DNA of 64,000 bases from an uncultured Rhodospirillaceae bacterium. Lineage in GTDB: Bacteria; Pseudomonadota; Alphaproteobacteria; JAEULC01. The notes under the pieces were generated by a model. It had not been told where the DNA came from and did no database searches. It saw nothing but the letters and a program-made list of their open reading frames with translations. The stretch lies in contig CAZLBB010000015.1 in the NCBI GenBank assembly GCA_964557415.1, forward strand, positions 616 to 64,615. Direction: 5' to 3'. Each line of letters begins with the position of its first letter. The first letter of the stretch is position 1. A program made the position numbers and the translations under genes. This document shows, in pieces, positions 1 through 14,392 of the stretch.

Positions 1-1213
1 GCTTGCCGGAGTCGTGGGCGAAGAAGGCGAAATAGGGAATCTTGATGCCGGAGTGGTGGAACACGCCCGCGCTGGCGAACAGCAGGACCAGCCAGGTCCA
101 GAAGTAGCCCTGGTCCATGGCCGCGGCGATGATCAGCGCCTTGCTGACGAAGCCGCTGAACAGCGGGAAGGCCGAGATCGACGCCGCGCCGACGACGCAG
201 AAGCTGGCGGTCAGGGGCATCGACTTGTAGAGCCCGCCCAGCTCCGAGCCCTTGGCCGTGCCGACGCGGTGGAGCACCGCGCCCATCGCCATGAACAGCA
301 GCGCCTTGTAGAGGATGTGGCAGAAGGCGTGGGCGACCGTGCCGTTGACCGCCATCTCGGTGCCGATGCCGATCCCGACCACCATGAATCCCAGCTGGTT
401 GTTGAGGCTGTAGGCGAGCACGCGCCGCAGGTCGTTCTCGATCACGGCGTAGAAGATCGGAAAGGCGGTCATCGCCGCGCCGATCGGCACCAGAATCTCG
501 GCGCCGGCGAAGCCGCGCGCGAGCGCGTAGACGGCGAGCTTGGTGGTGAAGGCCGACAGCATCACCGTGCCCGTGACGGTGGCCTCGGGATAGGCGTCCT
601 GCAGCCAGTTGTGCAGCAGCGGGAAGGCGCACTTGATGCCGAAGGCAAGAAAGACGAGCCACGAGCCCGCCGAGCGGAGCTCCATGCCGGCGAACGCGAT
701 CGAACCCGTCTCGCGGTAGAGCAGGATCACGCCGCCGAGCAGCAGGACGCCCGAGCCGACCTGCACGACCAGGTAGCGCATGCCCGCGGCGAAGGCACGC
801 TCGTTGCGCGAAGCCCAGATCAGGAAGACCGAGGCGACCGCCGTGCCTTCCCAATAGACGAAGAGCGTCACCAGGTCGCCGGCGAATACCGCGCCGATGG
901 CGCTGCCGGCATAGACCAGGCCCGCCACGTGCTGGACGGTGTCGTCGACGTGCAGCGCATAGATCGCTCCGAGGAGCGCGGCTATGAGGAATATGTAGCC
1001 GAACACGGCGCTCAGGCGATCGACGCGCAGCGTGACGAGATCGAGCCCGAGCACATGCACCGCGCCGGATTCGCCGTAGGGCAGGCCGACGAGCTGAACG
1101 AAGGCCAGGACCGGCAGGGCGAGCAGGTAGAGCGCGCGCGCCCGGCCGCGCAGCAGCGGCACCGCCACGGCGCCGAGGATCAGGACCAGGCCGGGCGAAA
1201 GATCAGCGATCAT
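1..1213 (-). CDS. Mrp/Mnh antiporter-like NuoL/M/N-family subunit (third MrpD/MrpA-like paralog); 5' end in window, 3' end beyond window start
   Basis: Absent from ORF track (no stop inside window). My reverse-complement translation from ATG at ~1213 gives MIADLSPGLVLILGAV...ENDLRRVLAYSLNNQLGFMVVGIGIG...HAFCHILYKALLFMAMGAV. It carries the LAYSS-type signature of proton-pumping antiporter subunits (PF00361) and is multi-TM. The + strand ORF 14..1585 is its shadow. Confidence 0.8.
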   Translation of the reverse strand, partial: MIADLSPGLVLILGAVAVPLLRGRARALYLLALPVLAFVQLVGLPYGESGAVHVLGLDLVTLRVDRLSAVFGYIFLIAALLGAIYALHVDDTVQHVAGLVYAGSAIGAVFAGDLVTLFVYWEGTAVASVFLIWASRNERAFAAGMRYLVVQVGSGVLLLGGVILLYRETGSIAFAGMELRSAGSWLVFLAFGIKCAFPLLHNWLQDAYPEATVTGTVMLSAFTTKLAVYALARGFAGAEILVPIGAAMTAFPIFYAVIENDLRRVLAYSLNNQLGFMVVGIGIGTEMAVNGTVAHAFCHILYKALLFMAMGAVLHRVGTAKGSELGGLYKSMPLTASFCVVGAASISAFPLFSGFVSKALIIAAAMDQGYFWTWLVLLFASAGVFHHSGIKIPYFAFFAHDSGK

Positions 1214-1484
1214 AGTAGTCTTCCGGCCGCTTCAGCAGCACGCGCAGCGCCCGCGCCGCGAGCACGAGCCCGACGCAGGCGACGAAACCGAAGATGCCGT
1301 AGAAGCCCAGCCAGTGCTCCGCCGCGAACGGCCCGTGCTTCGGCACCAGCGCGTCGATCGCCAGCAGCGCCGCGCAGACGGCGTAGAGCGCATAGACGAT
1401 CCGGTCGACATTGCGCCGGTCGTCGAGCCAGCGGCGCCGCTCCTCGGCGCCGCCCGTCCCCGGCGATCGCGTGTCAGCGGCCAT
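1203..1484 (-). CDS. small 2-TM membrane protein (93 aa) embedded between antiporter-like subunits; MbhI-like position
   Basis: Track ORF; two hydrophobic helices (IVYALYAVCAALLAIDALV, GFYGIFGFVACVGLVLAARAL); co-directional and tightly packed in the Mrp-like array. Confidence 0.5.
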   Translation of the reverse strand: MAADTRSPGTGGAEERRRWLDDRRNVDRIVYALYAVCAALLAIDALVPKHGPFAAEHWLGFYGIFGFVACVGLVLAARALRVLLKRPEDYYDR

Positions 1485-1502
1485 GGCGACGGCTCCGGCG
1501 GT

Positions 1503-2975
1503 TCATGGCATCCTCAGCATGCCGGCGACGAGGGACTGCAGCGGATCGATCAGGAAGAACAGCGCGACGCACAGCAGCGCGGTGACGCAGAGGGGAACGA
1601 GGCACGCGATCGGCGCCTCCCGCACGCCGGCCGCTTCGCCGGCATCGGCCGGCGCCAGGAAGAAGGCGCGGCCGACGATCGACAGCAGGTAGGCGACGTT
1701 GAGCAGCGAGCTCAGCATCAGCACGGCAAGCACGAAGCGGTAGCCGCTGTCGAGCGCGCCGAGCGACAGCAGCCACTTGCTCCAGGCGCCGCCGAGCGGC
1801 GGCAGGCCGATGATGCTGAGCGAGCCGATCAGGAAGGCGAACATCGTCACCGGCATGCGTCGACCGAGGCCGTTCATCTCGCTGACGTTGTACTTGTGCG
1901 CGGCCACCTGGATGGCGCCGGCGCAGAAGAACAGCGTGATCTTGCCGGCGGCGTGCATGGCGATGTGCACGCCGCTGCCCGCCACGCTGGCCGTCGTGGC
2001 CAGCGCCGCGCCAAGTACCACATAGGCTAGCTGGCTCACGGTGGAGTAGGCGAGCCGGGCCTTGAGGTTGTCGCGACCGAGGGCGACGACCGACGCGGCC
2101 AGGAGACTGAACGAGGCGACGTAGACCAGCCAGGCGCTGGCGCCGGTCGAGGCCAGCGTGTCGATGCCGAACACGTAGACCACGACCTTCAAGACGGTGA
2201 ACACGCCCGCCTTGACCACGGCGACGGCGTGCAGCAGGGCGCTGACGGGCGTCGGCGCCACCATCGCCGCCGGCAGCCAGAAATGCAGCGGCATCAGCGC
2301 CGCCTTGCCGATGCCGAAGGCATAGAGCGCCAGCAGAACGGCAAGGGTCAGGTCCGAGGCCTTGCCGCCCAGGATGCCCCCGGGGGCGAAATCGGTGGTG
2401 CCGGCCAGCACGTAGGTCGCGGCGATGGCCGGCAGGAACAGGACCATCGACGTGCCGAGCAGCAGCAGCAGGTAGAGCCGGCCCGAGCGCATCGCCTCGG
2501 CGTCGCGGTGATGCGCGACGAGCGGGTAGGTCGAGATGGTCAGCGCCTCGTAGAACAGGAACAGCGTGAACAGGTTCCTGGAGAAGGCGAGGCCGATGGT
2601 GCTGCCGAGCGCGATGGCGAAGCAGACGTAGTAGCCGGTCTGGCGCGGCTCGTCGTGCGCGCGCATGTAGCCGATCGAGTAGATCGAGTTGACGACCCAC
2701 AAGGCGGAGGCGACCAGCGCGAACAGCATGCCGAGCGGCTCGACCGCGAAGGCGAAGGCGACGCCGGGCAGCACGGCGACGCCGACCCATTCGGGCCGCG
2801 CGCCGCCGAGCACCGAGGGCAGCAGCGACAGGACGGCGAGGAAGAGCGCGGCGGCGGCGACCAGCGTCACCGCCTCGCGCGGGTTCGGCGCCCGGCGGAA
2901 CAGCGGGATGACCAGCGCCGCCGCGAAAGGGATGACGATCGCCGCGAGCATCAGCGTCTCGGGCTGCGCGCTCAT
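1503..2975 (-). CDS. mrpD: Mrp/Mnh antiporter subunit D-like (NuoN/M-like), paralog 2
   Basis: C-terminal 490 aa of track ORF 1503..4322 starting MSAQPETLM; motif NLKARLAYSTVSQLAYVVLG; ATGA overlap with upstream paralog stop. Confidence 0.85.
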   Translation of the reverse strand: MSAQPETLMLAAIVIPFAAALVIPLFRRAPNPREAVTLVAAAALFLAVLSLLPSVLGGARPEWVGVAVLPGVAFAFAVEPLGMLFALVASALWVVNSIYSIGYMRAHDEPRQTGYYVCFAIALGSTIGLAFSRNLFTLFLFYEALTISTYPLVAHHRDAEAMRSGRLYLLLLLGTSMVLFLPAIAATYVLAGTTDFAPGGILGGKASDLTLAVLLALYAFGIGKAALMPLHFWLPAAMVAPTPVSALLHAVAVVKAGVFTVLKVVVYVFGIDTLASTGASAWLVYVASFSLLAASVVALGRDNLKARLAYSTVSQLAYVVLGAALATTASVAGSGVHIAMHAAGKITLFFCAGAIQVAAHKYNVSEMNGLGRRMPVTMFAFLIGSLSIIGLPPLGGAWSKWLLSLGALDSGYRFVLAVLMLSSLLNVAYLLSIVGRAFFLAPADAGEAAGVREAPIACLVPLCVTALLCVALFFLIDPLQSLVAGMLRMP

Positions 2976-4465
2976 CGGACCGCGGCCAGCAGCATGGCGG
3001 CAGCCTTGCCGGCGATGTCGGCGGTCAGACGCGTGTCGAAGCCGAACCAGATGGTGGCGACGGCGAGGACCAGGGTCGGCACCAGCATCGACAGCGGCGC
3101 CTCGCGCGCGCGCTCGGCCAAGGGCGAGGGCGGGCGGAACCACACGACCTCGACGACGCGGCCGACATAGACGACGGCGATCATCGAGCTCGCCACGATC
3201 AGGAGGACCAGCAGCCAGCCGCTGTGGCCGAAGGCGCCGACGGCGAGATACCACTTCGAGACGAAGCCGGACGTGCCCGGCGTGCCGATCAGCGCGAAAC
3301 CTCCGACCGCGAAGGCCGCCATGGTCAACGGCATCTTCGGCCCGATCCCCGCCAGGTCGTGCAGCTTGACCGAGCCGACGCGGAAGAACACGGCGCCGAG
3401 CGCCAGGAACAGGGCGGCCTTCATGATCGCATGGTTGAACAGATGCACGATCGCCCCGGTCAGCCCGGCCTGGTTGGCCAGCCCGATGCCGAGCGTGATG
3501 TAGCCGATCTGCGCCAGGGACGAATAGGCGAGCATGCGCTTGAGGTTGACCTCGAACACGGCGATGGCCGAGGCGACGAACATGGCGGCGAGCGACAGGA
3601 CCAGCAGGACGTCGGCGAGCTGCAGCGGTCCGAAGGCGGGCGAACCGGCGAGGATCACGGCGAAGAAGCGCACCAGCAGGTAGATCGCGACCTTGGTCGC
3701 GGTGCCGGCGAGGAACGCCGCGGCCAGCGACGGCGCGTAGGCGTAGGCGTTCGGCAGCCAGACGTGCAGCGGGAAGAGCGCGAGCTTGAGGCTGATCCCG
3801 ACGGCGAGGAACGCGACCGCCACGGCCACCGCCAGCGTCTGCTCGGGCGGCACCGAGGCGAGCCGGTGGGCGATGTCGACCATGTTGAGGCTGCCGGTCA
3901 CCAGGTAGAGGAAGCCGACGCCGATCACGTAGAAGGTCGCGCCGATCGTCCCCATGATGAGGTACTGGAACGCCGAGAGCAGGGCGCGGCGGTCGCGCCC
4001 CAGAGCGATCAGCACATAGGTCGACAGCGACGAGATCTCGAGGAAGACGAAGGCGTTGAACGCGTCGCCGGTGATGGCGATGCCGAGCAGCCCGGTCAGG
4101 CACAACAGGTACATGCAGTAGAACCACGCCCGGCGCCCTTCGTCGACCTCGAAGGCGACGCTGCGCCGCGCGAACGGCATGATGGCGGCGGCGACCGAGG
4201 CGACCAGCAGCAGCACGAACGCGTTCAGGAGGTCGACGCGGTACTCGATGCCCCAGGGCGGCGGCCAGCCGCCCATGGCATAGGAGATCGGGCCGCTCTG
4301 CAGCACCTGCCACAGCAGGCAAGCGGCGATCACCGGCATCAGCCAGGAAACCGCCAGCGCCAGCACGAAGCCCGTCGCCTCGCGCCGGGCGAACCCGGCG
4401 AGGACCGCGCCGAGCAGCGGGACGACGACCTGCAGGGCGGGAAGCTGCGCGGCGACCGAGTTCAC
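2972..4465 (-). CDS. mrpD: Mrp/Mnh antiporter subunit D-like (NuoM/N-like), paralog 1
   Basis: Track ORF, 497 aa, GTG start; motif NLKRMLAYSSLAQIGYITLG, HLFNHAIMKAALF. Confidence 0.85.
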   Translation of the reverse strand: MNSVAAQLPALQVVVPLLGAVLAGFARREATGFVLALAVSWLMPVIAACLLWQVLQSGPISYAMGGWPPPWGIEYRVDLLNAFVLLLVASVAAAIMPFARRSVAFEVDEGRRAWFYCMYLLCLTGLLGIAITGDAFNAFVFLEISSLSTYVLIALGRDRRALLSAFQYLIMGTIGATFYVIGVGFLYLVTGSLNMVDIAHRLASVPPEQTLAVAVAVAFLAVGISLKLALFPLHVWLPNAYAYAPSLAAAFLAGTATKVAIYLLVRFFAVILAGSPAFGPLQLADVLLVLSLAAMFVASAIAVFEVNLKRMLAYSSLAQIGYITLGIGLANQAGLTGAIVHLFNHAIMKAALFLALGAVFFRVGSVKLHDLAGIGPKMPLTMAAFAVGGFALIGTPGTSGFVSKWYLAVGAFGHSGWLLVLLIVASSMIAVVYVGRVVEVVWFRPPSPLAERAREAPLSMLVPTLVLAVATIWFGFDTRLTADIAGKAAAMLLAAVR

Positions 4466-4827
4466 GAATCGCCGTCCTTCTCGAAGATCTCGTCCTCCTC
4501 GATCGTGCCGTACGCCTCGTTGATGCGGACGACGAGCGCGAGGCCGAGCGCCAGCGTCGCCACGCCGACGACGATCGCGGTGAGGATCAGCACGTGCGGC
4601 AGCGGGTTCGAATAGACCGTGAAGGCGGGGTCGATGATCGGCGCGGTGCCGCCGACGATCTTGCCGGGCTCGATGTAGAGCAGGTAGACCGAGGTCTGGA
4701 AGATGCCGAGGCCGATCAGCTTCTTCACCATGTTGCCGCGGGCGATGACGATGTAGAGACCCGCGACCATCAGGAAGACGGTGATGACGTAGTTGTAGTG
4801 GCTGAAGAATCCCTGCAGCGCCTGCAT
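4462..4827 (-). CDS. mrpC: Mrp/Mnh antiporter subunit C (NuoK-like)
   Basis: 121-aa C-terminal part of track ORF 4462..5403 starting MQALQGFFSHYNY; 3 TM helices; overlaps stop of mrpB at 4827. Confidence 0.85.
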   Translation of the reverse strand: MQALQGFFSHYNYVITVFLMVAGLYIVIARGNMVKKLIGLGIFQTSVYLLYIEPGKIVGGTAPIIDPAFTVYSNPLPHVLILTAIVVGVATLALGLALVVRINEAYGTIEEDEIFEKDGDS

Positions 4828-5246
4828 CAGCGGCCCCGCTCGACGAAGGCGTAGAACAGCGCGGTCATCGTGCTCGACACGGTGACCAGCACGCCGCATT
4901 CGACCAGGAAGATGCCGAGCCCGCGCCCGTGCGCCGGATCGCTCGCCGACAGCACGGAGTAGTCGAGGAAGTTCTTCCCCAGGAGCAGCCCCAGCACGCC
5001 GGTGCCGGCGTAGATCAGCACGCCGAGCGGCACCATGGCCCGCACGAGTCCCGGCGGGGCGATGCGCTTGGCGGCGCCGAGGCCGAAGGTGATGCCGACC
5101 AGGATGACCATGGCGGCGGTGATGACGCCGGCCTGGAAGCCGCCGCCGGGGCCGTACTCGCCGTGGAACTGCACGTAGAGCGCGAACAGCAGGATGAAGG
5201 GCAGGATCAGCTTGGTGCCGATCCTGAGGATCAGGTTGGACCTCAT
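4827..5246 (-). CDS. mrpB: Mrp/Mnh antiporter subunit B
   Basis: 139-aa C-terminal part of track ORF 4827..5906 starting MRSNLILRIG; hallmark HGEYGPGGGFQAG motif of MrpB. Confidence 0.8.
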   Translation of the reverse strand: MRSNLILRIGTKLILPFILLFALYVQFHGEYGPGGGFQAGVITAAMVILVGITFGLGAAKRIAPPGLVRAMVPLGVLIYAGTGVLGLLLGKNFLDYSVLSASDPAHGRGLGIFLVECGVLVTVSSTMTALFYAFVERGR

Positions 5247-5716
5247 TGCGGCGGCTCCGCCTTCGCGTCCGCCGCGCCGCGCCGCCGCGATCCGCGCAGC
5301 AGCAGCATGACGCCGATCCCCGCCGTGAAGATGACGGTCGTCTCGCCCAGCGTGTCGTAGCCGCGGTAGTCGGCCAGGACCGAGGTGACCGCGTTGGGCA
5401 CATGCGTGTCCTTGACCGTGTCGGCCAGGTAGCGGGGCGCCACGTGCTGGTGGATCACCGCATCGGGCACGCCGAAGGGCGGCAGCACGAAGCTGCCCCA
5501 GGCGATGGCGAGCCCCGTGGCCAGCGCCAGGACCAGCGGGGCCCAGCTGCGGCGCCACGGCCGCACCTCGATCGTCCTGGTCAGGTGGAGCGTGCCGAGC
5601 AGCACGATCATCGAGACGCCGGCGCCGACCGAGGCCTCGGTCATGGCGACGTCGACGGCGTCGAGCACGATCAGGACGCTCGCCATCAGGAAGCTGTACA
5701 CGCCGCTCAGGATCAC
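5243..5716 (-). CDS. MnhB-domain membrane protein (MrpA C-terminal domain-like; MbhE/F-like)
   Basis: Track ORF, 157 aa; motif NAVTSVLADYRGYDTLGETTV, typical of the MnhB-related domain; GTG start. Confidence 0.7.
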   Translation of the reverse strand: MILSGVYSFLMASVLIVLDAVDVAMTEASVGAGVSMIVLLGTLHLTRTIEVRPWRRSWAPLVLALATGLAIAWGSFVLPPFGVPDAVIHQHVAPRYLADTVKDTHVPNAVTSVLADYRGYDTLGETTVIFTAGIGVMLLLRGSRRRGAADAKAEPPQ

Positions 5717-5799
5717 CGCGCCGAACAGGTTGCGCTGGCCGATGATGGCCAGCGTGACGACGGCGAGCAGCGTCAGCAGTACGGCATTGACGAAGGTTT

Positions 5800-6156
5800 C
5801 TATGGCCGCCTCCCGTCGTCGCTCGGGGACGCCGGGGCGCGCTGCCGCCGGTCCTCCGCCAGGAGCGGCTCGACCTTCTCGTGCAGCGCCGACTGGGCGA
5901 GCGCATGCGTCACGACCGGGCCGGTGAAGAAGAACAGCACCAGCAGGAAGAGGAGCTTGAGGGCGACCAGGCTCGCGCCCGCCTGGAGCATCATGCCCAG
6001 GATCAGGAACGCGGCGCCCAGCGTGTCCGTGATGCTGGCCGCGTGCATGCGCGTGAAGAGCTCGGGCATGCGCACGAGGCCGACGGCGCCGACGATCGTG
6101 AAGAAGGATCCGACCAGGATCAGCGCCCAGCTCAGGACGTCGACGACCAGCGCCAT
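5800..6156 (-). CDS. mrpG: Mrp/Mnh antiporter subunit G
   Basis: Track ORF, 118 aa; motif GLVRMPELFTRMHAASITDTLG. Confidence 0.8.
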   Translation of the reverse strand: MALVVDVLSWALILVGSFFTIVGAVGLVRMPELFTRMHAASITDTLGAAFLILGMMLQAGASLVALKLLFLLVLFFFTGPVVTHALAQSALHEKVEPLLAEDRRQRAPASPSDDGRRP

Positions 6157-6437
6157 CAGGACTGCCGCTCCTCGTCCACGTCGTAGGCGAGGTCGCCGTG
6201 GCGGAAGAACTTGAGCACGGCGAGCGTGCCGATGATGTTGAGCAGCCCGTAGGTCAGGCCGATGTCGAGGAACTCGGGCCGCCCGGTCAGGAACCCGACG
6301 ACGGCGAGCAGCAGGATGGCGAGCGTGCCGACCGAATTCGCCGCCAGGACGCGGTCGAACACGGTCGGCCCCTTGACGGCGCGGGTGACGGCGAGCGCCA
6401 GCGCCACCAGCACGGCCAGCGCTGCGGCGACGAACAT
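6156..6437 (-). CDS. mrpF: Mrp/Mnh antiporter subunit F
   Basis: 93-aa C-terminal part of track ORF 6156..6959 starting MFVAAALAV; motif GRPEFLDIGLTYGLLNIIGTLAVLKF; ATGA overlap with mrpE stop. Confidence 0.8.
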   Translation of the reverse strand: MFVAAALAVLVALALAVTRAVKGPTVFDRVLAANSVGTLAILLLAVVGFLTGRPEFLDIGLTYGLLNIIGTLAVLKFFRHGDLAYDVDEERQS

Positions 6438-6910
6438 CAGGCCGAGCCCTCGAACCGGCTGACGCGGCGATCCATGCCGCCGCCCTCGAGATCGAGCGCG
6501 CCGTCCCGGACCAGTGCGTGCACGGTCAGGTCGTTGCCGCTGACGCCGACCGTGATGGTGCCGGGGGTCAGGGTGATGGAATTGGCGTAGACGTTGACGC
6601 CGAGCGGCGTCCGCTGGCTCGCCTTTACCACGGTCATGGTCGGCGAGATGGGCAGCCTGGGGTCGACGACGATCTTGGTGACGGCCCAGGCCGACTTTGC
6701 GATCTCCCGGATCAGCCAGGGAATGTAGGTGAGGGCGCCGAAGAACAGGTGGATCGGATGGCCCTCGGCGTCGGCGGTGCGCATGCGCACGGCGGCGAGC
6801 GCGCAGAGGACCGCGCAGACGGCGCCGACGGCGACCAGCGCCGGCGTGTAGTGCCCGGACAGGACGAGCCAAAAGGCGAACAGGAAGCCCGCCAGACTGA
6901 CGATCCGCAT
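6437..6910 (-). CDS. mrpE: Mrp/Mnh antiporter subunit E
   Basis: 157-aa C-terminal part of track ORF 6437..7492 starting MRIVSLAGFLFAFWLVLSG; MnhE-like. Confidence 0.8.
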   Translation of the reverse strand: MRIVSLAGFLFAFWLVLSGHYTPALVAVGAVCAVLCALAAVRMRTADAEGHPIHLFFGALTYIPWLIREIAKSAWAVTKIVVDPRLPISPTMTVVKASQRTPLGVNVYANSITLTPGTITVGVSGNDLTVHALVRDGALDLEGGGMDRRVSRFEGSA

Positions 6911-7050
6911 GGCCGAAACCTGTCCCCCCGACGATGAAGATGCCGCACGCGCCGGGCACACTTGCGGAACGAACGGTGCCCTTCCGGGGGGTCTTTTAGC
7001 CTGTCGGCCCGGGGCCAGCCAACAGGCAAATGCGTGACGCTTCGACGGTA

Positions 7051-10000
7051 TTAATACGCTGGTACCGGGGCCGAGAGGGTGCCTTGCCGCTTGAGTCCAC
7101 GCGCCTTCACGAGCCCGTAGATCGCCGGGATAACCAGCAGCGTCAGCAGGGTCGACGACGCCATGCCGCCGATCATCGGCACGGCGATGCGCTGCATGAC
7201 CTCCGAGCCGGCGCCCTGGCTCCACAGGATCGGCAGCAGCCCGGCGGTGATCGCCGCGACCGTCATCATCTTTGGCCGTACGCGCTCGACCGCACCGACC
7301 ATGATCGCCTCGCGGAGGTCGGCTGCGGTGGGGCTGCGGCCTTCGATCTCGCAATGGGCCAAGCGATCGTTCCAGGCGTGATCGAGGTAGATCAGCATCA
7401 CCACGCCGGTCTCTGCCGCGACGCCGGCCAGCGCGATGAAGCCGACTGCGACGGCCACCGATAGATTGAACCCGAGCCACCACATCAGCCACAGCCCGCC
7501 GACCAGCGCGAAGGGCAGGGACAGCATGACGATCAGCGTCTCGGGCACACGGCGGAAATTGAGATACAGCAGCAGGAAGATGATCAGCAGCGTGAACGGC
7601 ACCACGATCACCAGCCGCGCCTTGGCGCGCTCGAGGTACTCGAACTGGCCGCTCCAGGCGACGTAGTAGCCGGGCGGGAACTTGACCGTTGCGGCCACCG
7701 CCTTCTGCGTGTCGGCGACGTAGCCGCCGAGGTCGCGCCCGCGCAGGTCGACATAGATATAGACCGCAAGCTGCGCGTTCTCGGTGCGGATGCTGGCCGG
7801 ACCCTGCGCCAAGCCGACCTTGGCCACCTGGCCGAGCGGTACCGCGCCGCCGTTCGGCAGCGGAACGAGGACCTGCGTCGCGATCGCGCGCGGGTCGCTG
7901 CGCAGGTCGCGCGGGTAGCGGATGCTGACGGTGTAGCGCTCGCGCCCCTCGACCGTGGTGGTCACCGGCTCGGCGCCGAGCGCCATGGCGATCGTGTCCT
8001 GGAGGTCGCCGACCATCAGCCCGTAGCGCGCGAGCTGCGCCCGGTCGGGGTCGATGTTGAGGTAATAGCCGCCGATCACCCGCTCGGCGAAGGCGCTGCT
8101 GGTGCCTGGGACGGTGCGGATCGCCGCTTCGACCTGCCGGGCCAGGCGCTCCATCTCGGCGAGGTCGGTGCCGAACAGCTTGACGCCGACCGGCGTGCGG
8201 ATGCCGGTCGACAGCATGTCGATGCGCGCCTTGATCGGCATGGTCCAGGCGTTGGAGACGCCGGGAAACTGCAGCGCCCTATCCATCTCGGCGATCAGCT
8301 TGTCGATCGTCATGGCGGGGCGCCATTCGGCTTCCGGCTTCAGGTTGATCACCGTCTCGAACATCTCGATCGGGGCCGGGTCGGTCGCGGTGCTGGCGCG
8401 ACCCGCCTTGGCCATGACCGAGGCGACCTCGGGGAAGGACTTGATGATCTTGTCCTGCGTCTGCGCCAGCTCGGCGGCCTTGGTGACCGAAAGCCCCGGC
8501 AGGGTCGTCGGCATGTAGAGCAGCGTGCCCTCGTTCAGGTTGGGCATGAACTCGGCGCCGAGTTTCAGGGCCGGCCAGGCGCTGGCTCCGAGCACAACGA
8601 GCGCGACCAGCACCGTAAGCATCTTGGCGCGCAGCACCATGCGGATGAGCGGGCGGTACAGCCAGATCAGCAGGCGGTTCAGCGGATTGCGGCGCTCCGG
8701 CAGGATGCGGCCGCGCACAAACAGGATCATGAGCGCCGGCACGAGCGTCACCGACAAGAGCGCCGCCGCCGCCATGGCGAAGGTCTTGGTATAGGCCAGC
8801 GGCTTGAACAGGCGGCCTTCCTGCGCTTCCAGCGCGAAGATCGGCAGGAACGACACGGTGATGATCAGGAGGCTGAAGAACAGGGCCGGGCCGACCTCGA
8901 CGGCAGCCGCGATCAGGACCTCCGTGCGGTTCTGCTCGGGCCGCGCGCGCTCCAGGTGCTTGTGCGCGTTCTCGATCATGACGATCGCGGCGTCGACCAT
9001 GGCGCCGACGGCGATCGCGATGCCGCCCAGGCTCATGATGTTCGAGCTCAGGCCCAGCCAGCGCATGCAGATGAAGGCGATCAGCACGCCGACCGGCAGG
9101 GTGATGATGGCGACCAGCGCGCTGCGCACGTGCAGCAGGAACAGCACGCAGACCAGGGCGACGATCGCGCTTTCCTCGATCAGCGTCGCCTTGAGCGTGT
9201 CGATCGCGCGCAGGATCAGGTCCGACCGGTCGTAGACCGCCTCGATCTCGATCCCGCGCGGCAGGCTCGCGGCGATGTCGGCCAGCTTCTCCTTGACGCT
9301 CGCGATCACCGACAGGGCGTTCTCGCCGTAGCGCTGCAGCGCGATGCCGGAGACGACCTCGCCCTCGCCGTCCAGCTCGGCGATGCCGCGCCGCTCGTCC
9401 GGCGTCAGCTCGATGCGGGCGACGTCGCGCAGCAGCACCGGCACGCCGCCGTCGCTCTTCACCACGACCTGCTCGAGGTCGGCGACGCCCTTCAGGTAGC
9501 CGCGTCCGCGCACGGCGAACTCGGTCTCGGCCAGCTCGACCGTGCGGCCGCCGACATCGAGGTTGCTCTGGCGCAGCGCTTCGCGCACGCGCGCCAGCGG
9601 CACGCGCAGCATCTGCAGCCGGTGCGGATCGATCACGACGCTGTACTGCTTGACGAAACCGCCGACGCTGGCGATCTCGGCGACGCCTTCGGCCTTGGCC
9701 AGGCCATAGCGGATGTGCCAGTCCTGCAGCGAGCGCAGCTCGGCCAGGCTGCGCTGGGCGCCGCGCACGACGTACTGGTAGACCCAGCCGACCCCGGTGG
9801 CATCGGGGCCGAGCGACGGCGTCACGCCGGCCGGCAGCCGGCGCGCCGCCGAGTTCAGGTACTCGAGCACGCGCGAGCGCGCCCAGTAGAGGTCCGTGCC
9901 CTCGGCGAAGATCACGTACACGAACGAGACGCCGAAATAGGAGAAGCCGCGCACCACGCGCGACTTGGGCACGCTGAGCAGCGCCGTGGTCAGCGGATAG

Positions 10001-10197
10001 GTGACCTGGTCCTCGACCACCTGCGGCGCCTGGCCCGGGTACTCGGTGTAGACGATCACCTGGACGTCGGAGAGGTCGGGGATCGCGTCGAGCGGCACGC
10101 GCGTCACGGAATAGAGGCCGGCGGCCACCAGCAAGACGGTCGCGACCAGGACCAGGAAGACGTTCCGGGCCGACCAGCGGATGACGGCGGCGATCAT
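7051..10197 (-). CDS. cusA: CusA/CzcA-family heavy-metal efflux RND transporter (copper/silver type by context)
   Basis: Track ORF, 1048 aa; N-terminus [23 protein letters not shown]...[34 protein letters not shown], typical CusA; adjacent cusB and cusF. Confidence 0.9.
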   Translation of the reverse strand: [1048 protein letters not shown]

Positions 10198-11618
10198 GGC
10201 TGCTGCTCCCCGTTCGCCGCGGGCGGTGGCGACGTGAAGGCCTGGAGCGCGGCCTTGAGGTTGCTTTCGGCGTCGATCAGGAAGGTGGCGCTGGTGACGA
10301 CCTCTTCGCCCTCGGCCAGGCCTTCGATGACCTCGACCATGCCCTCGCCGCGCCGGCCGATTTTGACCGCGCGCGGCTCGAAGCGGCCTTCGCCCCGGGC
10401 GACCAGCACGACCTGCCGCATGCCGCTGTCGATCACCGCGCTGTCGGGTGCCGCGATCACGGCGGCGCCGCTGCCGCCGGCGCCGATCGTCACGTGGGCG
10501 AACATGTCGGTCTTGAGCATCAGATCGGGATTAGGCAGCTCGATGCGCACGCGCGCGGTGCGCGTCTCGGGCTTGAGGTCGGGGTAGACGAAGGTGACCT
10601 TGCCTTCGCGCTCCTCGCCCGGCAGCGCCAGGAAGACGGCGGTGGCGCGATCGCCGATCCGCACCTGCGGCAGCTCCTGCTCCGGCACCTCGGCGATGAC
10701 CCAGACGGTGCCGAGGTCGGCGATGCGATAGAGCTCGCTGCCCATCGCCGCGCGCTGGCCGTCGATCACCTTCTTCTCCAGCACGATCCCGCTCATCGGC
10801 GACGGCCAGTCGATCGTGCGCGGGTTGGCACCGGTCGCGCGCACCTCGCGGATGCGAGCCTCGGGCAGGTCGAGATTGCGCAGCCGCTGCATCGGTCCCT
10901 CTATCATCGAATTGGGGATGGACGGATCGGCGTCGCCGCCGGTGCCGCCGCGCGCCTTGTGCTCGCGCGTCGCGACGATCAGGTCCACCTGCGCCTGCTG
11001 CAGCTGCGCGCTGTAGACGCGGAACAGCGGCTGGCCGGCCTTCACGCTCTGGCCGGTCGCGTTGACGAACAGCTCCTCGATGAAGCCGTCGAAGCGCAGC
11101 GTCACCGACTTGATGCGTCGCTCGTCGAGCTTGACCGTGCCCGGCACGCGCACGGGCGTCGCCAGCACGCGCCGCTCCACCTTCCCCGTGCGCACGCCGC
11201 TGCGCTGCACGCGGTCGAGGCTTACCTTCACAATCGAGCCGTCCTCCGGCTCCTCGCCCTCGTGGACGGCGATGTAGTCCATGCCCATCCAGTCCTTCTT
11301 GGGTGTCGGCGACGTGTCGGGCAGGCCCATCGGGTTGCGGTAGTAGAGGATGCGCCTGCCGCCCGCCGTTTCGGGCGTGGCGCGGGACCCGGACGGTGCC
11401 CCAGGCGCGGCGCTCGCGTCGCCGCCCGACGCGACGGCCGCGCCGGCCAGCTGCCGTGGCCACAGGGCTTCAAGCGAACGGCCCTGGCCCAGCCAGAATC
11501 CGGCGGCTCCGGCGGTTGCGACCGCCGCCAGCGCCAGGGCGACCGCGGCGCCGCGGCGCGCCAAGCCGGCGGCCCGGGAGGAATCCGTGCTCGACTCGTT
11601 TGTGGACATACTTGCCAC
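10194..11618 (-). CDS. cusB: CusB-like RND efflux periplasmic adaptor (MFP)
   Basis: Track ORF, 474 aa; stop overlaps cusA start; membrane-fusion-protein-like sequence. Confidence 0.85.
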   Translation of the reverse strand: MASMSTNESSTDSSRAAGLARRGAAVALALAAVATAGAAGFWLGQGRSLEALWPRQLAGAAVASGGDASAAPGAPSGSRATPETAGGRRILYYRNPMGLPDTSPTPKKDWMGMDYIAVHEGEEPEDGSIVKVSLDRVQRSGVRTGKVERRVLATPVRVPGTVKLDERRIKSVTLRFDGFIEELFVNATGQSVKAGQPLFRVYSAQLQQAQVDLIVATREHKARGGTGGDADPSIPNSMIEGPMQRLRNLDLPEARIREVRATGANPRTIDWPSPMSGIVLEKKVIDGQRAAMGSELYRIADLGTVWVIAEVPEQELPQVRIGDRATAVFLALPGEEREGKVTFVYPDLKPETRTARVRIELPNPDLMLKTDMFAHVTIGAGGSGAAVIAAPDSAVIDSGMRQVVLVARGEGRFEPRAVKIGRRGEGMVEVIEGLAEGEEVVTSATFLIDAESNLKAALQAFTSPPPAANGEQQP

Positions 11619-11739
11619 CCATCATCGGCCGGGCGCCCGTCTTGTCGGGGGCACCCGGCTACTCTCGCGGCACACGCCGCGAAGGAACATGCCGAAGGCG
11701 CGACCCGGAGGGCCGGCCGCGTCGGTCGGTCTGGGGGCT

Positions 11740-12081
11740 CTAAGCGCGCGGAGGCGGCTTGTCGGGCAGGAGGCGCTGTCCGTCCGAAATTGCTTCGGCG
11801 TCGGCGATGGCCGTGGGGATGGTCGCAACGAGCGGCATCGTGTCGGTCGCGAGGCCGACGTGCTGCAGCGAGCAGGCGCTCACGGCGCAGGCCGCGTAGC
11901 TGCAGTCCGCCATGCACGGCATGCCGGCGCAACCGTCTTCCATCGGCACCAGCGAAACCTGCTCATGGCCGATGGCGGGCGTACCCGAAGAGCATACGAC
12001 CTCGGCGCCTCCCGACACCGTCAAGGGCACCAGCATGGTGAGCACGAACAGGATCGTTCGCAGCACGCGCGACATGGTCAT
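11740..12081 (-). CDS. small secreted Cys/Met/His-rich protein (candidate periplasmic metal-binding; DUF2946-like by recollection only)
   Basis: Track ORF, 113 aa; signal peptide MTMSRVLRTILFVLTMLVPLTVSG; motif CAGMPCMADCSYAACAVSAC; paralog of 16274..16651. Confidence 0.6.
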   Translation of the reverse strand: MTMSRVLRTILFVLTMLVPLTVSGGAEVVCSSGTPAIGHEQVSLVPMEDGCAGMPCMADCSYAACAVSACSLQHVGLATDTMPLVATIPTAIADAEAISDGQRLLPDKPPPRA

Positions 12082-12250
12082 ACCTTGCCGTCATTCCCTA
12101 AAGGAGTAATTGACGCAGATCAGTTCACATCGCTGCGAGCCAAGCCTCAGGCGCGCTGATCCCGGGCTTTCCCGCGACACAGAGCCGGAAAAACCGGGCG
12201 TTGCCAAGCAACTGGGCGGCAGCCGCCGATGGCGCGGAGGCTTCCGGCGG

Positions 12251-12562
12251 CTATTTGGGCTCGACCGACTCGAGCCAGAATGCGCCCTTCTCGCGGATCA
12301 GCGCGAATCTCACCTGCTGCCCTTCCTTCACGGCGTCCAGCAGCTTCGGGTCCTTCACCCGGAACACCATGGTCATGGCCGACATCTTCATCTCCGGGAT
12401 GGGTCCGTGCCGCAGCGTGATCTTGGCCTGCTCGCGGTCAATCTTGCGCACTTCGCCCTCGCCGCGGCCGGATTCGGCCTGGGCAAGCGCCGGGGGCGTC
12501 GCGCCGGCCGTTCCCATGGCGATGAGGAATGCGGCGGCGAGGGTGTGCAGTCGACGCTTCAC
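12251..12562 (-). CDS. cusF: CusF-like periplasmic Cu(I)/Ag(I)-binding protein
   Basis: Track ORF, 103 aa; signal peptide; GEVRKIDREQAKITLRHGPIPEMKMSAMTMVF (His/Met metal site typical of CusF). Confidence 0.8.
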   Translation of the reverse strand: MKRRLHTLAAAFLIAMGTAGATPPALAQAESGRGEGEVRKIDREQAKITLRHGPIPEMKMSAMTMVFRVKDPKLLDAVKEGQQVRFALIREKGAFWLESVEPK

Positions 12563-12563
12563 G

Positions 12564-13079
12564 TCAGCCTCCGACGTTCTTCTCGGTGACGATGATTTCG
12601 CCTTTCATCCCGGCCTCGAAATGGCCGGGGATCAGGCAGCCGAAGTAGAACCTTCCCGGCCTGGTGAATTTCCAGACCAGCGTGCTCGTTCCGCCGCCCT
12701 CGGCGCTGGCCGCGTTCGGGTCGTCGTGCTCCATCTCCGGAAAGCGCTGCATCTCCTCGGCGTGCTCGGCCAGTTCGTCCAGCGTCCCCAGCACCATTTC
12801 GTGCTTCTGGGCGCCGACATTCCGCAATTGGAAGCGGATCGTTTCGCCGGCGCGGATGCTCACCCGGTCCGGCACGAAGCGGAACTCGTCGTTCATCACG
12901 ATCCGGATTGTCCGCGCCGGCGCCTTCGGGTCGCCCGGCTCGCCGAGCGCTTCGCCATGGCCCGGCTTGGCGGGAGTGGGCGCCGGTCCCATCTTGGCGT
13001 GCGGCTCCGGCCCGTGCGCCCAGGCGGCGTCAAACCAGCCGAGAGCGACCGAGGCGACAAGCATCGCAGTGAACTTCAT
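12564..13079 (-). CDS. periplasmic cupredoxin (blue-copper, pseudoazurin/CopI-like)
   Basis: Part of track ORF 12564..13121 from MKFTAMLVASVALGWFDAAWA signal; C-terminal FGCLIPGHFEAGMKGEI type-1 copper ligand motif. Confidence 0.8.
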   Translation of the reverse strand: MKFTAMLVASVALGWFDAAWAHGPEPHAKMGPAPTPAKPGHGEALGEPGDPKAPARTIRIVMNDEFRFVPDRVSIRAGETIRFQLRNVGAQKHEMVLGTLDELAEHAEEMQRFPEMEHDDPNAASAEGGGTSTLVWKFTRPGRFYFGCLIPGHFEAGMKGEIIVTEKNVGG

Positions 13080-13108
13080 GAGATCGAGTCTCCCATTCCT
13101 GTTGGGCG

Positions 13109-14392
13109 TTATGCTTTCCACTCATAGGCGACGGTTCCCTTCGGGTGGCTGTACCAGCCCGGGTCCCTGTAGTCGCCGCGCGCAAGCCCTTCCCTGACCT
13201 TGACCACCGTGAACATGCCGCCCATCTCGATCGGCCCGAACGGGCCGGTCCCGGTCATCATCGGCAGCGTGTTCTCGGGCAAAGGCATTTCCATCTCGCC
13301 CATGTCGGCCATGCCGCGCTCGCCCATCAGCATGTAGTCGGGCACGAGCGTGGTGATCCTCTTGGCGACCTTGCGATGGTCGACACCGATCATGTTGGGC
13401 ACGTCGTGGCCCATCGCGTTCATCGTGTGGTGGGACTTGTGGCAGTGCAGCGCCCAGTCGCCGGCCACGTCGGCGTCGAATTCGAAGGCGCGCATCGAGC
13501 CGACCGGCATGTCGATCGTCGTCTCGGGCCAGCGGGCCGAAGGCGGCACCCAGCCGCCGTCGGTGCATGTGACGCTGAAGTGGTAGCCGTGCATGTGGAT
13601 CGGATGGTTGGTCATGGTCAGGTTGCCCATGCGCACGCGCACGCGATCGCCGCGCCGAATGACCAGATGATCGATGCCCGGGAAGACGCGGCTGTTGAAC
13701 GACCACAGATTGAAGTCGAGCATGGTCGCGGTCGTCGGCGTCGCCGCGCCGGGCTTGATGTCGTAGGCGTTGACGAGGAAGCCGAAGTCTCGATCGACGC
13801 GGAACTGCGCCGGATCGCGCGGATGCACGATGAACAGGCCCATCATGCCCATCGCCATCTGCACCATCTCGTCGGCGTGCGGGTGATACATGAAGGTCCC
13901 GCTCTTCTTCAGCTCGAACTCGTAGACGTAGGTCTTTCCGACGGGAATCTGCGGCTGCGTCAGGCCGCCGACGCCGTCCATGCCCGACGGCAGCAGCATG
14001 CCGTGCCAGTGGATCGTCGTGTGCTCGGGCAGGCGGTTGGTGACGAAGATGCGGACCCTGTCACCCTCGACGGCTTCGATCGTCGGACCCGGGCTTTCGC
14101 CGTTGTAGCCCCAGAGATTCGCCTTCATGCCGGGCGCAAGCTCGCGCACGACCGGCTCGGCCACGAGATGGAACTCCTTCCAGCCGTTGTTCACCCGCCA
14201 GGGCGCCGACCAGCCGTTCAGGGTGACGATCGGGTTGAAGGGGCGGCCGTTCGGCGGCGGCGGCGGCACCTGCGTGGCGGGACCGCGCGCCGGATAGGCG
14301 GGATCCGGCAAGGCGGCGAGCGAGGAACGGGCCACGAGCCCGGCGCCGAGGGCGGCGGCGCCGGCGGACAGGATGGTTCGGCGGGTCATCAT
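13109..14392 (-). CDS. multicopper oxidase (CopA/PcoA/CueO family), Tat-exported
   Basis: Part of track ORF 13109..14440 from MMTRRTILSAGAAALGAG (twin-arginine); HWHG, HPIHMHG, HCHKSHH copper-site motifs. Confidence 0.85.
   Translation of the reverse strand: MMTRRTILSAGAAALGAGLVARSSLAALPDPAYPARGPATQVPPPPPNGRPFNPIVTLNGWSAPWRVNNGWKEFHLVAEPVVRELAPGMKANLWGYNGESPGPTIEAVEGDRVRIFVTNRLPEHTTIHWHGMLLPSGMDGVGGLTQPQIPVGKTYVYEFELKKSGTFMYHPHADEMVQMAMGMMGLFIVHPRDPAQFRVDRDFGFLVNAYDIKPGAATPTTATMLDFNLWSFNSRVFPGIDHLVIRRGDRVRVRMGNLTMTNHPIHMHGYHFSVTCTDGGWVPPSARWPETTIDMPVGSMRAFEFDADVAGDWALHCHKSHHTMNAMGHDVPNMIGVDHRKVAKRITTLVPDYMLMGERGMADMGEMEMPLPENTLPMMTGTGPFGPIEMGGMFTVVKVREGLARGDYRDPGWYSHPKGTVAYEWKA

Follow-up and report, generated by a model that had tools for sequence, protein, structure and literature searches.

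Group 3 Mrp antiporters have been described as lacking a full-length mrpA, as having an irregular gene order, and as carrying mrpD-type genes only, often in multiple copies (Ito 2017; Haja 2021). The group 3 layouts found in the literature are mrpEFGBB'CD of Pyrococcus furiosus and 'MrpEFGBBCDD', and homologies among the subunits of Mrp, MBH and complex I have been described. It has been proposed that Na+ entry drives H+ extrusion in the stand-alone Mrp of P. furiosus (PMC8415708), and the Ah-mrp system of Aphanothece halophytica is a demonstrated Na+/H+ antiporter. The Na+ ligands that have been proposed are H40c in Mrp and D37g/H41g in MBH.

The locus studied here lies at one end of a 64,000-nucleotide stretch of DNA from an uncultured Rhodospirillaceae bacterium, which is referred to as the window. 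Positions 1-6910 contain ten genes on the minus strand, all co-directional and tightly packed or overlapping, in the order mrpE-F-G-A^C-B-C-D1-D2-S-D3. We conclude that the operon very probably encodes a complete, stand-alone 'group 3' Mrp (CPA3) multisubunit cation/proton antiporter that belongs to a widespread ten-gene class. The gene order is irregular in the manner of group 3, and the longest antiporter-like protein of the operon has 563 aa and no fused MbhD/E domain. The marks of groups 1 and 2, an mrpA fusion of ~800-960 aa and the order mrpA(B)CDEFG, are both absent. The adjacent catalytic or anchor genes of Mbh, Mbs, Fdh-Mnh and Codh-Mnh clusters are also absent, where the downstream side was judged on a 98.9 %-identical contig.

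The operon begins with mrpE (6437..6910; 157 aa; PF01899 MNHE, E 1e-28), which starts with an ATG at 6910 and whose stop overlaps the start of mrpF (6156..6437; 93 aa; PF04066, E 3.5e-15). It is followed by mrpG (5800..6156; 118 aa; PF03334, E 1e-23; TIGR01300 84 bits, cut-off 63.1), the MbhD+MbhE-type gene MrpA^C (5243..5803; PF13244 and PF20501; NF009159 178 bits, cut-off 141), mrpB (4827..5246; 139 aa; PF04039, E 4e-26; NF009162 173.5 bits, cut-off 120) and the NuoK-like mrpC (4462..4827; 121 aa; PF00420, E 1e-19; NF005624 135 bits, cut-off 95). At most junctions the adjacent genes share 1 or 4 nt, S and D3 share 11 nt, and D2 and S are 18 nt apart, in keeping with a translationally coupled operon. 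The set of Mrp domain types is complete (PF00361 three times, PF13244 with PF20501, PF04039, PF00420, PF01899, PF04066 and PF03334), and four subunits, A^C, B, C and D3, pass NCBIfam equivalog cut-offs. The initial annotation had read the order as E-F-G-B'-B-C-D-D-small-D, and the Pfam and NCBIfam searches bear out this order and the subunit assignments. It was also right about the GPGGGFQ motif in MrpB, the three NuoL/M/N-like paralogs, all with PF00361, of which the third runs off the window, and the 93-aa protein with two transmembrane helices that precedes the third paralog. An Rfam scan of the whole window returned zero families, and a repeat scan of 1-12000 gave high-GC noise alone.

The protein between MrpG and MrpB had been labeled an MnhB-domain protein. 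It is instead the C-terminal domain of MrpA, since it consists of PF13244 and PF20501 (MbhD+MbhE) and aligns to MrpA residues 604-765 of 7d3u (~600-800) as well as to MbhD and MbhE. A glutamate in its 'TEA' motif is conserved. MrpA is split rather than absent; its two parts are D3, which is L-type, and the free MbhD/E-like protein MrpA^C. The NuoL-like and MbhD/E-like domains are encoded by separate genes that lie 4 kb apart, toward the two ends of the operon. The earlier statement that there is no MrpA fusion is correct in that a fused MrpA is absent, but 'no MrpA' is better stated as 'MrpA split'.

The MrpA^C gene appears to have an unconventional start. The first ATG, GTG or TTG codon does not occur before 5716, yet TM1 is coded upstream of all such codons. 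A candidate start is the ATA at 5803-5801, which overlaps the TAG stop of mrpG and has a GGGAGG Shine-Dalgarno motif 6 nt upstream. It would give a protein of ~186 aa, compared with 157 aa from the first GTG, and it is the probable start judging from the sequence. An alternative explanation, a programmed frameshift that leads from mrpG into the A^C frame, was rejected. A conserved slippery site is absent, in several loci the ATH codon is preceded by an in-frame stop at a distance of 1-2 codons, and the Shine-Dalgarno motif is at initiation distance. In about half of the lineages ATA or ATC appears to serve as the start codon of MrpA^C, and because of this the gene is systematically truncated by gene callers, which affects annotation quality. 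The apparent MrpA^C start is a minor novelty and may be a useful example from nature of initiation that is non-canonical or coupled.

The three antiporter-like subunits differ in their relatives, but together they match solved chains of MrpD, MrpA, NuoL and MbsH. D1 (2972..4465; 497 aa; PF00361, E 3e-56) has MbsH, MrpD (7qru_D) and MbhH as its best solved relatives and is the MrpD equivalent. D2 (1503..2975; 490 aa; PF00361, E 3e-49; weak PF00662 match) is most similar, among solved proteins, to MbhH, NdhF, MrpA and NuoL. It has an L/MrpA-N-like core, the lateral helix is absent, and it is an additional antiporter-like subunit. D3 (1..1213; PF00361) is the distal L-type subunit. The window holds 404 of its 563 residues (P0125; L001), and these alone score 602.5 bits against NF009310 (PRK12668), for which the cut-off is 564. 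In an AF2 model of D3 (moderate confidence, pLDDT 68), residues 487-530 form a helix of 44 residues and residues 543-562 a terminal transmembrane helix. The top full-length Foldseek matches of this model are MrpA, NuoL and MbsH', with MrpA as the best fold match. D3 is therefore predicted by the model to carry a long amphipathic lateral helix of the L type and a final transmembrane helix.

The best solved relatives of MrpC are MbsG, MbhG and MrpC. In the MrpC family found here, Q and Y of a conserved 'FQTS..Y' motif occupy the proposed Na+-binding positions. The cation site may differ from that of Mrp and MBH because these residues replace the proposed His/Asp ligands.

The small protein S (1203..1484; 93 aa) has no curated family. 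There were zero Pfam or NCBIfam matches, and a profile comparison with the PDB gave chance matches only (E about 1). Searches with S gave 400 clusters at 90 % identity and, with E<=1e-3, 1709 clusters at 50 % identity. It sits between D2 and D3 in every locus that covers the region, and its AF2 model is a helical hairpin of moderate confidence. The possibility that S is a degenerate second MrpC, as reported for cyanobacteria, was rejected on an hhalign probability of 1 % against MrpC. The two-helix subunit S is specific to this family and goes together with D2 and D3, and its lack of a curated family is a minor novelty.

How common is this arrangement? The initial annotation considered a stand-alone permuted Mrp of this kind unusual, and this did not hold up. 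Of 82 independent loci, 65 have the identical ten-gene order; a further 14 loci, and L082 as judged by eye, are consistent with it but truncated at the edge of a contig. Carriers of this order belong to Alpha-, Beta- and Gammaproteobacteria, Acidobacteriota, Gemmatimonadota, Latescibacterota and Binatia. The D3 family is present in at least 586 species genomes from six or more phyla. NCBI and JGI already name these proteins as Na+/H+ antiporter subunits, with D3 as 'Na(+)/H(+) antiporter subunit D'. The operon is an ordinary member of a common group 3 Mrp class that has been annotated before. This class, a naturally occurring Mrp that stands alone and has three antiporter-like subunits, is abundant (at least 586 species genomes), and no assay or solved structure of any member was found in the literature searched.

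The likeness to the archaeal Mbh membrane-module order, pointed out earlier, is genuine; the order matches Mbh and Mbs and is also the known group 3 Mrp order. The E-F-G-D/E-B-C-D order common to MBH and MBS membrane modules, together with the fact that the window stops within D3, left room for a reading of the operon as the membrane arm of a respiratory complex that is redox-driven like Mbh, Mbx, Fdh-Mnh or Codh-Mnh, with its catalytic subunits coded outside the window or elsewhere. The flank of D3 was read from a 98.9 %-identical Logan contig, which stands in for the source contig beyond position 1. On this contig the D3 frame closes after 563 aa, and the next genes are convergent and unrelated, coding for a lipoprotein and a GTA-type holin, so the attached catalytic module that had been envisaged is missing, with no hydrogenase, FDH or CODH gene after D3. 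On the upstream side lies cusA, no neighbor family is recurrent among the 82 related loci, and a Pfam domain search of the ten genes found no NuoH/MbhM-type anchor gene. A redox-driven arm is already largely refuted and is very improbable, whereas we are rather confident that the Mrp operon is complete and stand-alone, with the flank inferred from the 98.9 %-identical contig. For the original question the operon is of little consequence, as a new partner enzyme is absent. Even less credible is a reading in which the mrp genes and the upstream cusBA heavy-metal efflux genes are one functional and transcriptional unit. The upstream gene is a true CusA/CzcA (TIGR00914, 1228 bits), and the coordinates confirm that the module starts 140 nt downstream of it on the same strand (cusA stop 7051, mrpE start 6910, spacer 6911..7050). 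A scan of the spacer found no consensus promoter or terminator, and the absence of a terminator, like the shared strand and the 140-nt gap, would fit a single unit; the spacer has one GC hairpin without a U tract and a fold z-score of -0.8. However, a cusA homolog adjoins the operon in none of the 82 related loci, and the upstream genes vary from lineage to lineage.

For a stand-alone Mrp antiporter, a mechanism can be suggested by homology to the solved Mrp, MBH and MBS structures. E-F-G-B-A^C-C would form the path of the cation, which is probably Na+. D1, D2 and D3 may each provide one proton path because all three share an aligned and invariant Glu in TM5 and Lys in TM7, TM8 and TM12. H+ influx down the proton-motive force would drive cation export and thereby contribute to Na+ and pH homeostasis, and a redox module would play no part. 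With three proton modules per cation module the H+/cation ratio is perhaps higher than in the two-module canonical Mrp, although this is speculation. We can only infer the ion specificity and the transport direction of the operon. An Mrp-type antiporter for another cation (K+, Ca2+), or one that works in another physiological direction, e.g. with Na+ entry driving H+ extrusion, would be in keeping with the family-specific FQTS..Y of MrpC in place of the proposed His/Asp ligands, and there are literature reports of group 1 Mrps specific for Ca2+ or K+ and of a P. furiosus Mrp with its role reversed. This is nevertheless unlikely, as the closest assayed relative by architecture, Ah-mrp (mrpCD1D2EFGAB), is a Na+/H+ antiporter and the 'TEA' glutamate of A^C is conserved.

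It has also been considered whether the ten-gene class is a distinct Mrp subtype, in which a detachable D2-S-D3 extension has been placed on a P. furiosus-like EFG-A^C-B-C-D core, with three proton channels, a changed H+/cation stoichiometry and an AUA/AUC start of MrpA^C in about half of the lineages. This proposal is tentative and we regard it as somewhat doubtful. The extension would consist of an L-like extra subunit, the uncurated two-helix subunit and the distal L-type subunit with its lateral helix, and translation of MrpA^C from AUA/AUC would probably be reinitiation coupled to mrpG termination. If true, these codons would be among the few evolutionarily recurrent non-NTG start codons in bacteria.

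Similarities to known systems extend as far as the membrane arm of complex I (NuoL/M/N/K/J). Both have three antiporter-like subunits, of which the distal one is L-type with a lateral helix, and the operon has a NuoK-like subunit in MrpC and a NuoJ-like one in A^C. However, NuoH, NuoA and the peripheral arm are absent from the operon, and MrpE, F, G and B are present. Judged from its length alone, the D3 lateral helix (~44 residues) does not seem long enough to reach across two subunits. The MBH and MBS arms (PDB 6cfw, 6u8y) have their Mrp-like part in the same order as here; the best sequence matches include MbsH, MbsG, MbhE and MbsE, and TM15-16 and the lateral helix of MbsH' resemble D3. 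They differ in having the catalytic and anchor genes MbhJKLMN/MbsJKLMN, which are absent here.

The canonical group 1/2 Mrp systems of Bacillus, Anoxybacillus and Dietzia (PDB 7qru, 6z16, 7d3u) share the domain types A^N, A^C, B, C, D, E, F and G with the operon, the charged residues of the antiporter subunits are conserved, and MrpA is the protein whose fold D3 matches best. In the operon, however, MrpA is found in two genes at opposite ends, EFG comes first, there is one more antiporter-like subunit, S is added, and the cation-site residues of MrpC are different. The cyanobacterial clusters (A. halophytica mrpCD1D2EFGAB; Synechocystis slr2006-2013, mrpCDCDEFGBB; PMC5703873, PMC4390856) are group 3 like the operon described here. 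Short MrpA/B-type proteins replace a full MrpA, there are several D paralogs, and the genes follow a cyclic permutation of the order found here, but two D paralogs have been described in cyanobacteria compared with three in this operon. The stand-alone group 3 Mrp of P. furiosus (mrpEFGBB'CD, PF1147-53; PMC8415708) has the identical order of E-F-G, an MbhD/E-type 'B', an MnhB-type 'B'', C and D. In both systems a full-length mrpA and a redox module are absent, and MbhD and MbhE are fused in one protein. The P. furiosus system is archaeal and has one antiporter-like subunit, whereas the operon described here is bacterial and also has D2, S and D3, the last being L-type and bearing a lateral helix, so that its antiporter-like subunits number three.

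Because of its G+C content of about 70 %, the region contains many spurious ORFs, but a single coherent gene set with strong family support lies on the minus strand. mrpE (6437-6910, PF01899), mrpF (6156-6437, PF04066) and mrpG (5800-6156, PF03334) are followed by a gene for an MbhD+MbhE-type protein, A^C (5243-5803, PF13244 and PF20501), and by mrpB (4827-5246, PF04039, motif GPGGGFQ) and mrpC (4462-4827, PF00420). The remaining genes encode the antiporter-like paralogs D1 (2972-4465, 497 aa) and D2 (1503-2975, 490 aa), a 93-aa protein without a family, S (1203-1484), and a third paralog, D3, which runs from 1213 to beyond position 1 with 404 aa inside the window. The junctions are mostly 1- or 4-nt overlaps; S and D3 overlap by 11 nt and the D2-S spacing is 18 nt. 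The ten genes and their order, as proposed in the initial annotation, were confirmed almost to the base by coordinates and family matches, since the family-supported gene set and the 140-nt gap between cusA and mrpE were found as described. The gene 5' of mrpE encodes a true CusA/CzcA and is accompanied by a gene for a CusB/CzcB-type adaptor. Just past the cusA stop, an 11-bp GC-rich hairpin (GCCTGTTGGCTGG...CCGACAGGC) is located at 6990-7020 on the minus strand, followed by UAAAAG and not a U tract. The fold stability of the whole spacer does not exceed that of shuffled sequences (z = -0.8), and cusA adjoins the operon in none of 82 annotated related loci.

It had been suggested that a catalytic partner module might lie just past the window. 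The exact 93-aa S protein was found on four short Logan contigs. Logan contig L003 matches the window at 100 % identity, and Logan contig L001 (98.9 % identity over 2695 nt) extends 970 nt further. D3 in L001 is 563 aa long, and the protein record P0125, from a 67,291-bp NCBI contig, is the window's own D3, with 100 % identity over 404 residues and the same full length of 563 aa. Two genes convergent to D3 are found at 3165-3661 in L001, which corresponds to a stretch some 500-1000 nt outside the window, past its position 1. One encodes a 77-aa lipoprotein with the lipobox LAGC and the other a 3-TM holin (PF11351 GTA_holin_3TM, phrog_3427); together they resemble a lysis cassette from a prophage or a gene-transfer agent. 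No hydrogenase, formate dehydrogenase, CODH or Nuo-type module follows D3 in this contig, which largely refutes the suggestion.

One genome per species was scanned with two D3-specific peptides, and at least 586 of at least 600 matched stretches were confirmed as relatives. With the ten window proteins as queries, 82 loci were annotated, 80 among the matches listed and two found through S. By their record titles, the carriers belong to the Alpha-, Beta- and Gammaproteobacteria, Nitrospira, Gemmatimonadota, Acidobacteriota, Latescibacterota and Binatia. The exact order E-F-G-A^C-B-C-D1-D2-S-D3 is present in 65 loci. Another 14 end at a contig edge, yet are consistent with it, as is L082, a locus whose S was recognised by eye. 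The loci L035 and L043, from related gammaproteobacterial MAGs, have only a three-gene D2-S-D3 cluster (8200-11700), with unrelated opposite-strand genes upstream. When all flanking ORFs were clustered, no family occurred in more than 17 of the 82 loci and the top clusters were generic, for example ABC ATPases; the complex is therefore self-contained.

In L072 (Latescibacterota chromosome OZ244937.1, 890-20200), the ten-gene mrp operon is flanked by NuoL/NuoM-like genes (891-4365) on one side and a NuoN-like gene (11859-13304) on the other, and the operon for an F-type ATP synthase comes immediately afterwards; chance could account for this synteny, which was seen in one locus. The Mrp proteins of L051 (VGXC01000056.1, labelled Nitrospira sp.) are 63-89 % identical to the window's, a similarity equal to that of Xanthobacteraceae/Hyphomicrobiales loci and far above that of other non-alphaproteobacterial loci; mis-binning or a recent transfer may explain this. 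Aerobic-type CO-dehydrogenase/xanthine-dehydrogenase-family genes (CoxL-, CoxS- and CoxG-like) lie no more than 4 kb from the operon in about 8-9 loci, on either side and either strand (e.g. L034, L037 and L080), and their recurrence probably reflects lineage synteny and not a functional link.

The start codon of A^C appears to be non-canonical. In the window there is no ATG, GTG or TTG ahead of GTG 5716 (residue 30), and automatic gene callers cut the protein to 157 aa, losing the first transmembrane helix (residues 8-29), which aligns to MrpA TM17. The conserved N-terminus starts at ATA 5803-5801 on the minus strand, which overlaps the mrpG TAG stop (ccATAGaa) and has a GGGAGG motif upstream. 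A sequencing error is ruled out because three independent near-identical contigs share the sequence. Of 65 loci, 34 appear to use ATA or ATC at a site that overlaps the mrpG stop or lies just before it, and between codons -12 and +3 they contain no canonical alternative; in 30 others a canonical start occupies the corresponding codon or is only a few codons away. In some loci the reading frame is interrupted by a stop 1-2 codons before this site. A Shine-Dalgarno-like motif lies 4-11 nt upstream of the ATA/ATC in 27 of the 34, compared with a background of 4.2 % at ATH codons inside the genes of these operons, and the E-x-L-I-N stretch at residues 2-6 is conserved. A neighbour-joining tree of D3 shows at least 13 switches of the start between ATA/ATC and NTG. 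E. coli has only two confirmed starts other than NTG, those of infC and pcnB, and initiation there from AUA or AUC reaches 1-2 % of the AUG level. The best reading of these sequences is genuine AUA/AUC initiation, which would probably be helped by termination-reinitiation coupling with mrpG.

The searches gave 400 S clusters at the 90 % identity level and 1709 at the 50 % level, with the conserved motif WLD..NV...D..HKH..F..E..FGFYG.YGF...LR..L.RPEDYYD. S is predicted to be a helical hairpin (AF2 model) and has no match in Pfam, NCBIfam or the PDB; a relationship to MrpC was ruled out by comparison. Wherever the region is covered S lies between D2 and D3, and it accompanies them in L035 and L043, which suggests that D2-S-D3 is a separable add-on to an EFG-A^C-B-C-D core.

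The 186-aa A^C aligns to residues ~600-800 of MrpA in three Mrp complexes of solved structure, as well as to MbhD, MbhE, MbsD and MbsE, which identifies it as the MrpA C-terminal domain. D3 is divergent. The best full-length fold matches of its AF2 model (pLDDT 68) are MrpA (7qru_A, 6z16_A), NuoL/ND5 and MbsH'; the model ends in a helix of 44 residues (487-530) followed by a last transmembrane helix (543-562). Since A^C corresponds to this domain and D3 is predicted to fold like MrpA, MrpA is split and not missing, with its parts carried by these two proteins. The nearest solved relatives of D1 are MbsH, MrpD and MbhH, and those of D2 are MbhH, NdhF, MrpA and NuoL, with a weak Proton_antipo_N match. 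D1, D2 and D3 share 30-32 % pairwise identity and all keep the TM5 Glu, TM7 Lys and His, TM8 Lys, TM11 His/His/Lys and TM12 Lys. By homology, they would form three proton paths powered by the proton-motive force, and E-F-G-B-A^C-C would carry the cation path. The MrpC motif NIFQTSV(F/Y)LLYI (residues about 40-50) is conserved family-wide (74 members); its FQTS..Y puts Gln and Tyr where characterised Mrp/MBH have His/Asp..His, the proposed Na+ ligands, and may indicate a different cation site or specificity.

The gene description thus stood, but the implied novelty and possible partner module did not, because no partner module follows D3 in the 98.9 %-identical contig and the order is common and already annotated. 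A^C, B, C and D3 score above curated NCBIfam equivalog cut-offs (NF009159, NF009162, NF005624 and NF009310), and D3 relatives are named 'Na(+)/H(+) antiporter subunit D' by NCBI and JGI. Only the ten-subunit class, the uncurated S and the recurrent non-canonical start may be worth follow-up. The operon belongs to the known group 3 Mrp, defined as being without mrpA and having an irregular gene order and often several mrpD genes. The stand-alone Mrp of Pyrococcus furiosus is mrpEFGBB'CD (PMC8415708), and its 'B' is an MbhD+MbhE fusion, the same as A^C. The genome paper on the Solemya velum symbiont lists an 'MrpEFGBBCDD complex' and treats it as an ordinary Na+:H+ antiporter. Na+/H+ antiport activity has been reported for cyanobacterial mrpCD1D2EFGAB (PMC5703873, PMC4390856), which is a cyclic permutation of the gene order in the window.
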